Source: Pirellulales bacterium (GTDB lineage: Bacteria; Planctomycetota; Planctomycetia; Pirellulales; UBA1268). Taken from it: 64,000 nt of DNA. The position numbers and the translations under genes were made by a program. This document shows positions 40,423 to 46,392 of the stretch, piece after piece; position 1 is the stretch's first letter; every line of letters begins with the position of its first letter. The stretch is from positions 33,202 through 97,201 of the forward strand of contig JBBAVV010000007.1 in NCBI GenBank assembly GCA_040397545.1, written 5' to 3'. The notes below the pieces were generated by a model. That model was given only the letters and a program-made list of their open reading frames with translations, ran no database searches and was not told the DNA's origin.

Positions 40423-40581
40423 CCGAGCCGCCCGGCCGGTTGCCGGCCACCCCGGCCCGAGTCGGCAAAGTCGATGAAATACCGACTGCGGCACCCGCGG
40501 CGAACGATACGCTTGAGGATCGCGCCCAACCGTGACCGCGACCCTTCCAAGAACGCCCCAGCAAGCAGGTTTCATTCCCGC

Positions 40582-42777
40582 ATGTCCCAATCCACGCAGC
40601 CCCAGCCCGGCCCGGTTTCCGACCGCTGGCTCGGGCTCCATTTTGCCTTTGCGATCACGCTCAGCGCGTTTCTCCTCTTCCAGGTCCAGCCGATCATCGG
40701 GAAGTTCATCCTTCCCTGGTTCGGCGGCTCCCCGGCGGTCTGGACGACCTGCATGCTCTTCTTCCAGTGCCTCCTCTTTGCCGGCTACGCCTATGCGCAC
40801 GCCAGCATCCGCTTCCTTCCCCGCGCGGCCCAGATGGGGCTCCACATCGTGCTCCTGGCTCTCGCCGTGGCCCTGTTCTCCATCGCCCCCGATCCGGCCT
40901 TCAAGCCGAGCGATAGCAGCGACCCGACGTGGCGGATCATCAAGCTCCTCTCGGTCGCCGTCGGCCTCCCCTACTTCATGCTGGCGACGACCGGTCCGCT
41001 CGTGCAGGCCTGGTTCAGCCGGGTGTTCCCCGGGAAGTCGCCCTACCGGCTCTACTCCCTCTCCAACATGGGCTCGTTCGCCGCCCTCCTCACCTACCCG
41101 TTCTTCTTCGAGACCATCTGGGGCGTGCGGACGCAGACCTTCGTCTGGCGGGTCGCCTTCGCCGTGTTCGCTGTCGCCTGTGCCGCGATCGCCTATCTCT
41201 CCTTCCGGCACGGTGCCAAGGCCGACGGCGCCCGGGGGACCCGCGCGGCCGACCCCGGCAGCGGCATCACCTGGTTCCACCCGATCGCCTGGTTCCACCC
41301 GATCGCCTGGTTCCACCCGATCTCCTGGGTCCTCCTCCCCGCCTGGGCCTCGATGGTATTCCTGGCCACAACGAACCACATGTGCCAGGATGTGGCTCCG
41401 ATTCCGTTCCTGTGGATCGTCCCTTTGAGCCTCTATCTCCTCACCTTCATCATCTGCTTCGACCACGAGCGTTGGTATCTGCGGCGCACGACGACGCTCC
41501 TCATGCTGGCGGCGGTCGTGGCCGTGGCCGGTGACAGCCTCTTCTACTTCCTCCGCGACGGCCTCGAGGGGATCGGATTCAGCCACCGGATGCCCTACTG
41601 GCAGGAGGTGATCCTCCTGTCGACGACGATGTTCCTGATCTGCATGGTCTGCCATGGGGAGATCGTGCGGATCCGCCCCCACGCCGACCATCTCACCCTC
41701 TTCTACATGCTCGTGTCGCTCGGCGGAGCGCTCGGCGGCGTGTTTGTCAGCCTCATCGCCCCCCGACTCTGGACCGACTACCACGAATGGAGCCTGACAA
41801 TCTACGGCTCGCTCCTCCTGGCGATCGCCGTTCTCCTCGCCGCGTCGCTGAAGCAGGCAAAGGGCGACGCGGAGGGGAAGGGCGAAGCGTGGAAGTACGC
41901 TCTCGCTGCCTTCGGCGCGGTGGGGGGGCTCCTCCTCCTCCGCACCTGGATGTCCGATCCGGCCCGCTTCATCGATCAGGTCCGCAACTTTTACGGCGTC
42001 AGCCAGATCGCGGAAACCGACGTCGGCACCCCCCTCCATCACCGCACGATGTTGCACGGCGGCACGGCCCACGGCAAGCAATACGTCTCCGACGACATCG
42101 CCAAGCGCCGCATCCCGCTGGCCTATTACGGCGAGCACACCGGCATCGCCAAGGCGATCCATGCGTTCGACGGGAAGACCGGCGTCCGGATCTGCACGAT
42201 CGGCCTCGGCATCGGCACGACCGCGGCCTTTGCCAGGCCGGGCGACTTCTACCGCTTCTACGAGATCAACGACGAGGTCATCCGCCAGGCGGAAACACTC
42301 TTCACCCACCTCTCCGACTGCCTGGCGGAGAAAGAGCTCGTCGCCGGCGATGCCCGGCTGATGCTCGAACAGGAGCTCCAGCAGGGAGGGAGCCACCGCT
42401 TCGACCTCATCGCCGTCGATGCCTTCAGCGGCGACTCCGTGCCGACGCACCTGATCACCACCGAGGCGATGAAGCTCTACGTCGATCACCTCGCCGACAA
42501 GAACGACGGGATCATCTGCATGAACATCAAGAACCGCTACATCGACCTCTGGCCGGTGGTGAAGGGACTGGCCCGGGAGCACGGTCTGAAACTGCGGCGG
42601 ATCACCGCGCCGCACGACAGCGAGCGGCTCATCTACGAGACCGACTTCGTCCTCCTCACCAACAACGAGGCCTTCCTCGCCAGTACCAGCGACGTGATGC
42701 CGACGGGGGTGAACCTCGACAAGGAGGTGCCGCTGTGGCGGGACGACTTCAACAACCTCTCCCAGATCCTCAAGTGA
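40582..42777 (+). CDS. Membrane-fused spermidine-synthase-like (polyamine aminopropyltransferase family) protein
   Basis: The N-terminal polytopic region (FLLFQVQPIIGKFILPWFGGSPAVWTTCMLFFQ...) is followed by a methyltransferase-fold C-terminus: ICTIGLGIGTTA...YEINDEVI...FDLIAVDAFSGDSVPTHL. I chose the start at 40582 (MSQSTQ...). The ORF-head ATG at 40474 adds 36 junk-like residues. Confidence 0.8.
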   Translation: MSQSTQPQPGPVSDRWLGLHFAFAITLSAFLLFQVQPIIGKFILPWFGGSPAVWTTCMLFFQCLLFAGYAYAHASIRFLPRAAQMGLHIVLLALAVALFSIAPDPAFKPSDSSDPTWRIIKLLSVAVGLPYFMLATTGPLVQAWFSRVFPGKSPYRLYSLSNMGSFAALLTYPFFFETIWGVRTQTFVWRVAFAVFAVACAAIAYLSFRHGAKADGARGTRAADPGSGITWFHPIAWFHPIAWFHPISWVLLPAWASMVFLATTNHMCQDVAPIPFLWIVPLSLYLLTFIICFDHERWYLRRTTTLLMLAAVVAVAGDSLFYFLRDGLEGIGFSHRMPYWQEVILLSTTMFLICMVCHGEIVRIRPHADHLTLFYMLVSLGGALGGVFVSLIAPRLWTDYHEWSLTIYGSLLLAIAVLLAASLKQAKGDAEGKGEAWKYALAAFGAVGGLLLLRTWMSDPARFIDQVRNFYGVSQIAETDVGTPLHHRTMLHGGTAHGKQYVSDDIAKRRIPLAYYGEHTGIAKAIHAFDGKTGVRICTIGLGIGTTAAFARPGDFYRFYEINDEVIRQAETLFTHLSDCLAEKELVAGDARLMLEQELQQGGSHRFDLIAVDAFSGDSVPTHLITTEAMKLYVDHLADKNDGIICMNIKNRYIDLWPVVKGLAREHGLKLRRITAPHDSERLIYETDFVLLTNNEAFLASTSDVMPTGVNLDKEVPLWRDDFNNLSQILK
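41271..41324 (+). repeat. 18-bp tandem repeat CTGGTTCCACCCGATCGC x3 (third copy has 1 mismatch), in frame (WFHPIA/S)
   Basis: Read directly; units begin at 41271, 41289 and 41307. Confidence 0.9.
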
Positions 42778-42847: not shown

Positions 42848-42877
42848 TTGCCCCCGGGGGATCCCGGGATCCATAAT
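42848..42877 (+). promoter_or_regulatory. Candidate sigma70-type promoter for the tRNA gene
   Basis: TTGCCC (42848..42853), an 18-nt spacer, then CATAAT (42872..42877). The hexamer ends 12 nt before tRNA position 1. Confidence 0.35.
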
Positions 42878-42889
42878 CGGTTTTCAGTT

Positions 42890-43270
42890 GGGACCGTAGC
42901 TCAACGGTCAGAGCAGGGGACTTGACGGGCACCACCTACACGGATCCTTCCGCAGGGTGAGGCCCCACGGGTTGCCGCCGCTTCGCAGTCACCGCCCACG
43001 GGGGCGCTGCGGTACGGCGGTAGAATCTGCCAAACTCGGGGAACGCTTCGTCGCCATCGGCATCTGCCGGGGGTGACATGCCAATCCCGAGCCAAGCCGT
43101 CGGGGCCGGTGCAAACCGGTTGTGACGGAAGGTGTAGAGGCCAGACGGCAGACGCATCCCGCCGCGAGCGGGGCGAAGGTATGGTCCAGACCACGAACCC
43201 GAAAGGGGCGGCGAAAGCCGAAGTGGGAGGCATAATCCCTTGGTTGCAGGTTCGAATCCTGCCGGTCCTA
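42890..43270 (+). tRNA. tRNA with a CAU anticodon (Ile2/lysidine-type or elongator Met) interrupted by a group I intron; exons 42890..42922 and 43231..43270
   Basis: The joined exons are GGGACCG-TA-GCTC-AACGGTCA-GAGC-A-GGGGA-CUCAUAA-UCCCU-UGGUU-GCAGG-UUCGAAU-CCUGC-CGGUCCU-A. They fold into a full cloverleaf of 73 nt with a G1:U72 wobble and no encoded CCA. The anticodon arm and variable loop closely resemble E. coli ileX as I recall it. Confidence 0.8.
42923..43230 (+). ncRNA. Group I intron (IC3-like, Azoarcus tRNA-Ile type), 308 nt, no ORF
   Basis: The intron follows a U (U33) and ends in G (...GUGGGAGG|CAUAA). It contains ...CCCGAGCCAAGCC... and ...GGAAGGUGUAGAGGCCAGACGGCAGAC..., which match from memory the conserved core of the Azoarcus intron (GAGCCAAGC ... 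GAAGGUGUAGAGACUAGACGGCAC). There are paired candidates for P3 (UCUGCC/GGCAGA), P4 (CUCGGG/CCCGAG) and P6 (GCCGUC/GACGG). GNRA loops are present (GCAA, and GAAA twice). Confidence 0.75.
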
Positions 43271-43320
43271 TTTTTTCTTTCCGTCAGACAGACCGCTCCC
43301 CCGCAGGGGCGGACGCCACG

Positions 43321-44233: not shown

Positions 44234-45550
44234 ATGCCCCGCCCCGTCGCGACGCTCCTGGTCGGCCTGCTCCTCGTCCCCGCGCTGACGGCATCGGCCG
44301 AAAACTGGCCCGATTGGCGCGGGCCGAATCATGACGGCACGGCGGCGGCCACCGGCCTGCCGACCGACTGGACGAAAGAGGGGAAGAACGTCCTGTGGCG
44401 GACCCCGCTCCCCGGCCGGGCCGGCGCCACCCCCTGCGTCTGGGGGGGCCGTATCTTCCTCACCAGCAACGACGGCGATGACCTCGTCGTGCTCGGGCTG
44501 GCGACGAAGGATGGGCGAATCCTCTGGAAGAAACAGGTGGGGAGCGGCAATCAGGACGCGCGGGCCGGCGAGGGCAACTCCGCCTCCCCCTCCCCGTCGA
44601 CCGACGGCAAGCATGTCTGGAGCTTCTTCGGCACCGGCGTCCTCGCCTGCCACACCATCGACGGCGACGAGGTGTGGAAGACCGACATCAACGAACGCTT
44701 CGGGCGGATCGACATCCAATTCGGGATGACCTCGACGCCGGTCCTCGACGGCGGTGCCCTCTATCTTCAGCTCATCCACGGCCCGATGAAGCTCGACGAC
44801 CAGACCCGCACGGGGAAGGTCGTCAAGCTCGACGCCGCGACGGGGAAGACGATCTGGGAGGTCGAACGCCCCACCGACGCCCAGTTCGAATGCAAGCACG
44901 CCTACGCCTCGCCGGCCGTTTACCGGGATGGCGCGCGGGAGTTCCTCGTTGTCCACGGCGCCGATTGCATCACCGGCCACGCCCTCGGCGACGGCCGGGA
45001 GCTGTGGCGGTTTTCGAAGCTCAACGGCCCCACCGGCACCAACCCCAAGCCGCACGATCCGACGTTCCGCTTCGTCGCCTCCCCGGGCATCGTCCCGGGG
45101 TTGATCGTCGTCCCGACGGCCAAGGGGGGCCCAACGGTGGGGCTGAAGGTCTCCGACGCGCTCGCGGGCGATTGCTCCGACAAGCCGGAGGTGATCGCCT
45201 GGGTCCACCCGCGCACCCCTGACGTGAGCACGCCGCTGATCGCCGATGGCCTTGTCTATCTCCTCCACAACGACGGTAAGCTCCAGTGCCTTGACGCCGC
45301 CACCGGCGCGGAGCTGTGGTTCGAGCGGACGCACACCGGCCAGCATCGGACCAGCCCACTCCTCGTCGACGGCCGGCTGTGGTTTGGATCGAACGACGGC
45401 TGGGTGTCGATCGTGGGAGCGGGACGGACGTTCGACCTCGTCAATTCGATCGAGGTGGGCGAGCCGGTGACCGCGTCGCTCCTGGTTGCTGACAGCGTCC
45501 TCTTCGTGCGTTCCTCCGACGCCCTCTACGCCATCGGTCGACAGCGCTGA
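44234..45550 (+). CDS. Secreted PQQ-like beta-propeller repeat protein (BamB-like fold)
   Basis: The signal peptide ...ALTASAENWPDWRGPNHDG is a typical start for this family. Repeated blades follow (…LWK…, …VWK…, …IWE…, …LWR…, …LWF…). Confidence 0.8.
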   Translation: MPRPVATLLVGLLLVPALTASAENWPDWRGPNHDGTAAATGLPTDWTKEGKNVLWRTPLPGRAGATPCVWGGRIFLTSNDGDDLVVLGLATKDGRILWKKQVGSGNQDARAGEGNSASPSPSTDGKHVWSFFGTGVLACHTIDGDEVWKTDINERFGRIDIQFGMTSTPVLDGGALYLQLIHGPMKLDDQTRTGKVVKLDAATGKTIWEVERPTDAQFECKHAYASPAVYRDGAREFLVVHGADCITGHALGDGRELWRFSKLNGPTGTNPKPHDPTFRFVASPGIVPGLIVVPTAKGGPTVGLKVSDALAGDCSDKPEVIAWVHPRTPDVSTPLIADGLVYLLHNDGKLQCLDAATGAELWFERTHTGQHRTSPLLVDGRLWFGSNDGWVSIVGAGRTFDLVNSIEVGEPVTASLLVADSVLFVRSSDALYAIGRQR

Positions 45551-46175: not shown

Positions 46176-46392
46176 TCGAGCCTCCCCCGTCACTCCCCGC
46201 GGAAAAAGTCATCCCTGACCGAACCGGCTGCGAGGCAGCCGGGAGAACCGGTCCACTTGGAAAACCTCCGGTTTTCTCGCGTACTGCACACTCGTGACCG
46301 CCTCGTGCGGTCGAGCCAGCACTTCATCGACAGCCTGCTGACCTCCGATCCGTCCGCAGGATCCTCCCTTCGCGCCCCCAGAGACTCCTGAC

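Follow-up and report, generated by a model that had tools for sequence, protein, structure and literature searches.

The DNA examined here, referred to below as the window, is a stretch of 64,000 nucleotides from a Pirellulales bacterium in which two segments of the forward strand, 42890-42922 and 43231-43270, join into a 73-nt tRNA with the anticodon CAU. ARAGORN called this tRNA(CAU) on the joined halves, that is with the intervening DNA removed as the original prediction had proposed, and, given the genomic DNA and permitted to call introns, it reported a tRNA(CAU) carrying a 308-nt intron after U33. The 5' exon (42890..42922, + strand) provides nucleotides 1-33 of what is probably a tRNA-Ile2, comprising the 5' strand of the acceptor stem, the D arm, the 5' strand of the anticodon stem, C32 and U33, and the 3' exon (43231..43270, + strand) provides nucleotides 34-73, from the anticodon CAU onward to the discriminator A73, so that the anticodon loop after joining reads CUCAUAA. 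The coordinates predicted for the two halves were exact; the cloverleaf had also been described as perfect, which does not hold given the G1.U72 and G27.U43 wobbles. A 75-nt ARAGORN call with an acceptor stem of 8 bp is spurious, the extra pair coming from the flanking T and A. CCA is not encoded after A73, and a T-run follows at 43271-43276.

A consensus scan located a promoter-like site, TTGCCC-18 nt-CATAAT (42848..42877, + strand; one found versus 0.1 expected), 12 nt upstream of the tRNA 5' end. Both hexamers are kept in the two closest orthologous loci (L040 and L053, described below), and CATAAT is also present upstream of an intron-less copy of the tRNA gene. This site is a putative promoter of the split tRNA gene. 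Within the 64-kb window, neither a further tRNA nor an intact CUCAUAA loop was found. Default ARAGORN and Rfam at gathering thresholds gave no match anywhere in these 64 kb, and the split gene is therefore invisible to routine annotation; this silence reflects the low sensitivity of these searches and not the absence of a gene.

The boundaries of the insert were fixed by comparison with an empty site. A metagenome scan with the 41-nt exon junction matched at least 120 contigs, one of which (L151) contains an intron-less tRNA gene that matches the joined exons at 73/73 nucleotides, the first 33 and those of the 3' exon alike, and adjoins a gene that is 85% identical to the PQQ beta-propeller gene of the window. 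Sliding the 308-nt segment by one base in either direction failed to reproduce the L151 tRNA sequence and, because no other placement yields it, the boundaries are exact: the intron occupies 42923-43230, between U33 and C34, beginning right after U33 (42922) and ending in G (43230). The prediction that the insert follows a U and ends in G was thus borne out, as was its inference of an insertion point between U33 and C34, unlike that of the Azoarcus intron at 36/37. A one-base shift that would give the anticodon UAU was ruled out, as the omega position would be a C and the product would be unlike the empty-site allele. The match between L151 and the joined exons also indicates that the tRNA halves are not a product of chance.

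The insert (42923..43230, + strand, 308 nt) is a group I intron of subgroup IC3, as indicated by the empty-site comparison, the U(-1)/omegaG rule, two covariance models and covariation among homologues. Its assignment to group I draws on a local match to Rfam RF00028, a match to a second covariance model (R1) and the covariation; its assignment to IC3 draws on R1 and on the published homologues of its class, which are labelled IC3. The RF00028 search that had been suggested as a check returned a match at 43024-43153 (model positions 48-158; 23.7 bits, E=6.5e-4), and so supported the prediction locally while falling short of the gathering score of 50. That score was reached by only five of 14 bona fide relatives and by 0/6 of the planctomycete ones, and a sub-threshold result is therefore weak counter-evidence; two Azoarcus-type introns among the 14 pass marginally, at 50.5 and 53 bits. 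The RF00028 gathering threshold is insensitive for the lineage of this intron. R1 was built solely from 21 betaproteobacterial Azoarcus-type introns (tRNA-Ile2, insertion 36/37; alignment A3) and gave a single match in the 64 kb, at 43012-43204 on the + strand, with 42.2 bits and E=6e-12. The core strings recognized in the original prediction, GAGCCAAGC and GAAGGUGUAGAG...AGACGGCA, are present in the window intron and invariant in the 21 Azoarcus-type introns. An examination of all three forward frames of the 308-nt intron found no homing-endonuclease ORF.

Homologues were collected by a genome scan with a 20-base core pattern (GAAGGTGTAGAGNNNAGACGGCA), which matched at least 120 loci, most of them containing split tRNA genes according to ARAGORN with introns allowed. 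This program often placed the introns of relatives at 36/37, producing false anticodons; the resulting Leu, Ser, Thr and Val calls were rejected, and all became CAU genes split at 33/34 once the introns were re-split by the U(-1)/omegaG rule. Among the matches listed there were 55 tRNA(CAU) genes split at 33/34, the window included, of which 48 are Ile2-like and seven initiator-like. The 48 Ile2-type sequences were aligned (alignment A1) and a hand-drawn structure comprising P1, the base of P2, P3, P4, P5, P6, P6a, P7 as a pseudoknot, P8, P9.0, P9 and P9a was tested on this alignment.

The structure accounts for the alignment well, with 97.3% of cells paired versus 30-45% when the 3' partners were slid by 1-3 columns. 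Compensatory changes occur in 26 of 53 pairs (n=48), and none of 500 shuffles reached the observed covariation score. Pairing is 90-100% in helices P3-P8, of which P3, P5, P6a, P7 and P8 show compensatory changes, and the pairing of the P3, P4 and P6 candidates put forward in the original prediction was confirmed, together with its GNRA loops (GCAA in L6, GAAA in L9 and GAAA in L9a). The splice-site U.G wobble, the omegaG and a P7 G-C pair were each found in 48/48 sequences, while J3/4 AAA and most of J8/7 are invariant. The guide sequence changes together with exon position -3 (A-U in 31 sequences, G-C in 17).

At the 5' end of the intron, the 5' strand of P1 is formed by exon nucleotides G30-A31-C32-U33 and intron nucleotide U1 (42919..42923, + strand), which pair with the internal guide sequence GGGUU (42969..42973, + strand), the 5' splice site following 42922. 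U33 (42922) lies opposite G (42970) in a G.U wobble with the guide, whose GGG is invariant in 48/48 sequences and which covaries with the exon. P1 has just four exon pairs. An alternative P1, pairing exon GGGG with GGCCCC (42961-42966) around a bulged A, was ruled out by covariation that places the guide at GGGUU 42969-42973. P10 amounts at best to one or two pairs in the window copy (C34-G, U36-A) and is not convincing. Inserted in the P1 loop (L1) is a hairpin (42927..42965, + strand) in whose MFE fold a receptor-like, asymmetric 3-nt/2-nt internal loop (CCUACAC...GCAGGG) separates an outer stem from an inner hairpin. P2 (42974..43021, + strand) is a long hairpin with compensatory changes in 6/7 pairs of the helix base and a loop that is not GNRA (ACGG in the window). 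The L1 insertion and this long P2 make up the extended 5' region of about 110 nt that had been noted from the sequence.

Within the core, the 5' strand of P3 (UCUGCC; 43026..43031, + strand), followed by J3/4 AAA, pairs with the 3' strand GGCAGA (43147..43152, + strand), with 100% of cells paired and a compensatory change in two pairs. The P4-P5-P5a/b domain (43035..43091, + strand), with the adenines of J4/5 and J5/4, contains a P4 that is 99.7% paired and nearly invariant, a P5 pair that covaries (G-C 28, C-G 16) and a receptor-like loop in P5, GC-UUC-G...C-AU-GC. Both this loop and that of L1 depart from the receptor consensus, with UUC for UAA in P5 and CCUACAC...GCAGGG in L1. The P6/P6a/P6b element (43092..43132, + strand) is capped by the GCAA tetraloop and has compensatory changes in 4/5 P6a pairs. 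The 5' strand of P7, G-A-GGCC with a bulged A (43137..43142, + strand), pairs with 43183-43187 in 100% of cells and forms a pseudoknot with P3; its terminal pair covaries (C-G 29, U-A 19), and beside the bulged base lies the G-C pair 43139/43186, which we take to correspond to the guanosine-binding pair of the Azoarcus structure. P8 (43153..43175, + strand) is a hairpin without an 11-nt receptor and has compensatory changes in 3/3 basal pairs. J8/7 (GAAGGUAUG, 43176-43182) and the P7 3' strand GGUCC (43183-43187) form a segment (43176..43187, + strand) that is nearly invariant in the 48 sequences and fits the Azoarcus-type consensus GAAGGCAUAGUCC. Finally, P9.0 (CCAC/GUGG; 43191..43226, + strand) encloses P9 (43198-43207) and P9a (43209-43220), each with a GAAA loop; compensatory changes were detected in all of these helices and in 4/4 pairs of P9a. 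The last nucleotide of the intron is the omegaG (43230, + strand), after which the 3' splice site follows as also defined by the empty site.

The loci closest to the window, L040 ('Planctomycetia bacterium ELA020') and L053, match it at 92-95% identity across about 8 kb and share its gene order. The genome is that of a member of the Planctomycetia, in line with the original description as Planctomycetota-like. The database label of L053, 'Candidatus Kuenenia stuttgartiensis', was rejected, since the locus has 66.5% GC and is 92-95% identical to the window. Both are independently assembled MAGs in which the split gene is found in the same neighbourhood. These orthologues therefore refute the idea that the arrangement arose by faulty or chimeric assembly or by tRNA-like halves lying together by chance and, with the same architecture present at 54 further loci among the matches listed, we regard the probability of this explanation as negligible.

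A three-way alignment of the window with L040 and L053 (alignment A2) shows that the exons differ at one D-loop base and that there are zero substitutions in the intron core. Changes within the intron are found in the L1, L5b, L6 (GCAA to GCGA, still GNRA) and L8 loops and as a switch from G.U to G-C in P6b; the distal part of P2 is rebuilt in L040 and L053 and, as read by eye from the alignment, still pairs. About a third of positions differ in the spacer 3' of the tRNA. This pattern of a kept core beside a diverged spacer is as would be expected for a functional ribozyme rather than a relic. The intron could otherwise have decayed into a relic that no longer splices, leaving a tRNA pseudogene and AUA to be read by an uninterrupted tRNA-Ile2 or a tRNA-Ile UAU elsewhere. 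Such decay would fit with the divergence of the P5 and L1 receptor-like loops in the clade of the window, the weak P10, R1 and Rfam scores that are among the lowest of the family, and the common occurrence of intron-less copies of the same tRNA in metagenomes, but it is difficult to reconcile with a catalytic core in which every element is intact and invariant, with three species whose flanks are 5-8% apart and whose core and exons are essentially unchanged next to a spacer that has diverged by ~30%, with the conservation of the promoter-like hexamers, or with exons identical to the presumably functional uninterrupted gene of L151. We consider a relic very unlikely.

The identity of the host tRNA was assessed by similarity and by specific features. 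Compared with 5,426 E. coli genomes, it matched best to genes with the annotation tRNA-Ile, and the one inspected has the CUCAUAA loop. The anticodon arm and the variable loop (GCAGGNGACUCAUAAUCNCUUGGU) fit the Ile2 pattern, in agreement with the original suggestion of a lysidine-type tRNA-Ile2. Features of initiator tRNAs are absent, and an initiator identity is excluded by a G.U pair at 1-72 in place of a C.A mismatch and by A31-U39 as the last pair of the anticodon stem. With its CAU anticodon, the tRNA body is nearer to Ile2 than to elongator or initiator tRNA-Met. The host tRNA could instead be an elongator tRNA-Met in which C34 is unmodified and reads AUG, given that both tRNAs have a CAU anticodon and A73 as discriminator; this is improbable in view of an identity of 78% to E. 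coli tRNA-Ile(CAT) versus 68% to the annotated E. coli elongator tRNA-Met, of the Ile2-like anticodon arm and variable loop, and of an identity of 82% to the Acidobacteriota host tRNA of a published Ile2 33/34 intron, which was assigned to Ile2 by tFind and BLAST. The data support an Ile2 (lysidine) type, a choice over elongator Met that is not certain by similarity alone. Demand for AUA decoding appears in the window as four ATA codons among 675 Ile codons in 23 high-GC3 ORFs.

Taken from its sequence, the locus is very probably a functional gene for an AUA-decoding, lysidine-type tRNA-Ile2 (CAU) with its own promoter, split at U33/C34 by a 308-nt IC3 intron. This reading is grounded in exact exon and intron boundaries, a conserved core, covariation in the helices, conservation under purifying selection in sister species and homology to catalogued introns; from these we infer that the intron is catalytically active in vivo and that the tRNA is processed and receives lysidine. 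Transcription from its own promoter would give a precursor of roughly 380 nt with an interrupted anticodon loop, in which the guide GGGUU (42969-42973) would pair with exon G30-U33 to form P1 and place the U33.G wobble at the cleavage site. As G30-U33 are taken up by P1, this helix would compete with the anticodon stem until splicing has finished. Following the standard group I pathway, a free guanosine in the P7 pocket would attack after U33, the omegaG (43230) would then take the P7 pocket, and the 3'-OH of U33 would attack the bond before C34. Ligation of the exons would create the CUCAUAA loop, with a predicted junction of GGGGACU and CAUAAUCCC, and may be followed by RNase P cleavage, 3' trimming, CCA addition and lysidinylation of C34 by TilS.

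The known diversity of these introns is wider than the original prediction assumed, as its view that bacterial tRNA group I introns are mainly those of cyanobacteria and alpha/beta-proteobacteria is out of date: Nakagawa et al. 2026 (mSystems, PMC13011429) report 333 tRNA group I introns from 18 phyla. In Williams 2020 (bioRxiv 10.1101/2020.01.27.920355), four classical settings (Leu.3Ug, Arg.5Ug, fMet.2Ug and Ile2.5Ug) are joined by 17 new ones from 5,292 introns, and the seed alignment, for which sequences were picked from shorter introns, includes Gba28.Ile2.2Ug, a tRNA-Ile2 split at 33/34. Nakagawa et al. (PMC13011429) treat position 33/34 in tRNA-fMet as a well-characterised site, and their Table S5 has an entry 'Ile2 (CAT) 33/34', IC3, in Acidobacteriota, whose listed intron sequences are plainly homologous to that of the window. 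A claim of novelty fails because Ile2 33/34 is already present in Williams 2020 and Nakagawa et al. 2026; the insertion point and the host tRNA were known, and the window provides a further member of a catalogued class.

The window intron belongs to this Ile2.2Ug, or 'Ile2 (CAT) 33/34', class, as a group I intron that separates U33 from C34 in a probable tRNA-Ile2 gene and has U at -1 and G at omega. It shares with the class the host tRNA type, the insertion point, both splice-site nucleotides, the IC3 core and a 3' domain, GUCCAGACCAC...CCCGAAAGGGGCGGCGAAAGCCG...GUGG, seen in two Acidobacteriota entries of Table S5 of Nakagawa et al. Points of difference are its origin in Planctomycetia, compared with Acidobacteriota for those two entries, a structured insertion of 39 nt in the P1 loop, and a P2 that is long and lacks a GNRA loop. 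Among the matches listed in our scan, the Ile2 33/34 class was found in Planctomycetota (many loci), Chloroflexota, Gracilibacteria, Peregrinibacteria and Peribacteria, and in single loci labelled Bacillota, Blastocatellia and Chitinophaga, while the fMet 33/34 version was found among them in Omnitrophota and CPR lineages. Among the papers listed by literature searches with planctomycete names, none dealt with tRNA group I introns of planctomycetes.

Comparison with the other classes separates the window intron from each of them. The cyanobacterial tRNA-fMet intron (fMet.2Ug) occupies U33/C34 of an identical CUCAUAA loop and has an IC3 core, but its host is the initiator tRNA and its guide matches GGCU, whereas that of the window matches GACU; the seven fMet-type 33/34 genes among the matches listed have a GGGCU guide sequence. 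Some fMet.2Ug copies, such as that of Synechocystis, encode a homing endonuclease, unlike the window intron. The tRNA-Leu(UAA) intron of cyanobacteria and plastids (Leu.3Ug; Anabaena) is likewise an IC3 intron of the anticodon loop with a similar P9.0/P9/P9a arrangement containing GCGGCGAAAGCCG, but interrupts another host tRNA at position 34/35. The intron of the Azoarcus pre-tRNA-Ile (Ile2.5Ug), the crystallised IC3 ribozyme, shares the host tRNA species, the subgroup and the strings GAGCCAAGC and GAAGGUGUAGAG-NNN-AGACGGCA, yet is inserted at 36/37 after CAU with a CAU/GUG P1, in contrast to 33/34 and GACU(U)/GGGUU in the window. The Azoarcus intron is about 205 nt long, its L2 GAAA docks on an 11-nt P8 receptor and it has one P9 hairpin, none of which applies to the window intron: its L2 is ACGG and its P8 lacks CCUAAG...UAUGG, both of which elements (the L2 GAAA and the P8 receptor) are found in alignment A3, and it has instead the L1 insertion and two GAAA hairpins in P9. 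Core identity is 0.75-0.90 to other planctomycete 33/34 introns and 0.65 to the Azoarcus type, the lowest of the classes compared. The designation 'Azoarcus-like' in the original prediction is therefore apt for the subgroup and not for closeness of relationship, the periphery being different as well.

A split tRNA-Ile2 gene leaves the current understanding of group I introns unchanged. It does bear on annotation. With introns allowed, ARAGORN misplaced most of the introns of relatives and reported false Leu, Ser, Thr or Val anticodons; as default ARAGORN and Rfam at gathering score also overlook the gene of the window altogether, routinely annotated planctomycete genomes are expected to seem to be without a tRNA-Ile2 or to show phantom tRNAs. 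Related organisms have this tRNA in both intron-containing and uninterrupted form, and the 33/34 CAU site is occupied in both tRNA-Ile2 and tRNA-fMet genes of many phyla, which provides material for studies of intron gain, loss and transfer between tRNAs with a CUCAUAA loop. If the genome to which the window belongs has no second tRNA-Ile2 copy, AUA decoding would depend on the folding of the ribozyme.

The periphery of these introns provided a further set of observations. The internal loop of the L1 insertion may dock the GAAA hairpin of P9 (43198-43207) and act as a peripheral clamp on P1 in place of the Azoarcus L2-P8 contact; this is a speculative structural model to which we attach a rather low probability, and we found no description of a P1-extension contact of this kind. 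Introns with the L1 insertion usually have a second GAAA hairpin (P9) and are without the Azoarcus pair of L2-GAAA and P8 receptor, in a count that ignores phylogeny. This count, a regex search for receptor motifs versus P9 GAAA loops, is noisy and phylogenetically confounded, with fMet-type introns mis-parsed. When relatives were folded separately (MFE), 24/24 had the same L1 architecture, with a 3-nt/2-nt internal loop flanked by C-G pairs. The internal loop of the window (CCUACAC...GCAGGG) has diverged from the canonical 11-nt GAAA receptor, CUAAG...UAUG, which is present in L1 of the folded Chloroflexota, CPR, Bacillota and Blastocatellia copies and of some Pirellula copies.

Automated anticodon calls were a source of error among the loci matching the intron core pattern (L001-L120). 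With introns allowed, ARAGORN placed the intron of most of the CAU genes interrupted at 33/34 at position 36/37 (e.g. L001, L003, L008, L013 and L083), and these genes were therefore assigned false anticodons, namely Leu UAA/UAG/CAA/CAG, Ser UGA/CGA, Thr CGU or Val CAC. CAU was recovered in every miscalled case after re-splitting by the rule that the intron follows an exon U and ends in G. The covariance model built only from 21 betaproteobacterial Azoarcus-type introns also detected IC3 introns, at 45-93 bits, in L004, L007, L016, L017, L026, L043, L051, L054, L066, L068, L077, L087, L090 and L092, around which ARAGORN found no split tRNA. There were two matches in L090, where the two introns lie less than 1 kb apart.

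In the intron of the window, the P1 loop carries an inserted hairpin (42927-42965) with an internal loop of the tetraloop-receptor type; the GAAA-capped hairpins P9 and P9a lie at 43198-43207 and 43209-43220. In many relatives this internal loop is the canonical 11-nt receptor, and an extra GAAA-capped P9 hairpin tends to accompany the receptor-type hairpin. L2 lacks a GNRA loop, and P8 lacks a receptor. The arrangement may reflect a tertiary contact from P9 to the P1 extension.

The acceptor stem of the interrupted tRNA opens with a G1.U72 wobble (42890 and 43269), as do those of many Pirellulales copies, whereas the Planctomycetaceae copies have G1-C72. Downstream, two tandem SET-domain genes (Pfam PF00856; 43321-43767 and 43796-44182) separate the tRNA from a PQQ beta-propeller gene (44234-45550). 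Gene order indicates that this pair is an insertion or deletion adjoining the tRNA gene, because in L151, the intron-less relative, the PQQ gene directly follows the tRNA. Upstream, an ORF (40474-42777) encodes a 767-aa membrane protein that had no Pfam match and contains the tandem peptide repeat WFHPIA WFHPIA WFHPIS (about 41280-41340).

Alignments with L040 and L053, the closest relatives with the same split gene, are otherwise collinear, but about 150 nt of the window (about 46188-46338) have no counterpart in either and represent, on this comparison, a small indel. L053 (CAMBFA010000043.1) belongs to a MAG titled 'Candidatus Kuenenia stuttgartiensis'; its locus has 66.5% GC and shares 92-95% identity both with the window and with a MAG named 'Planctomycetia bacterium', and from the sequence this title is almost certainly a mislabelling.
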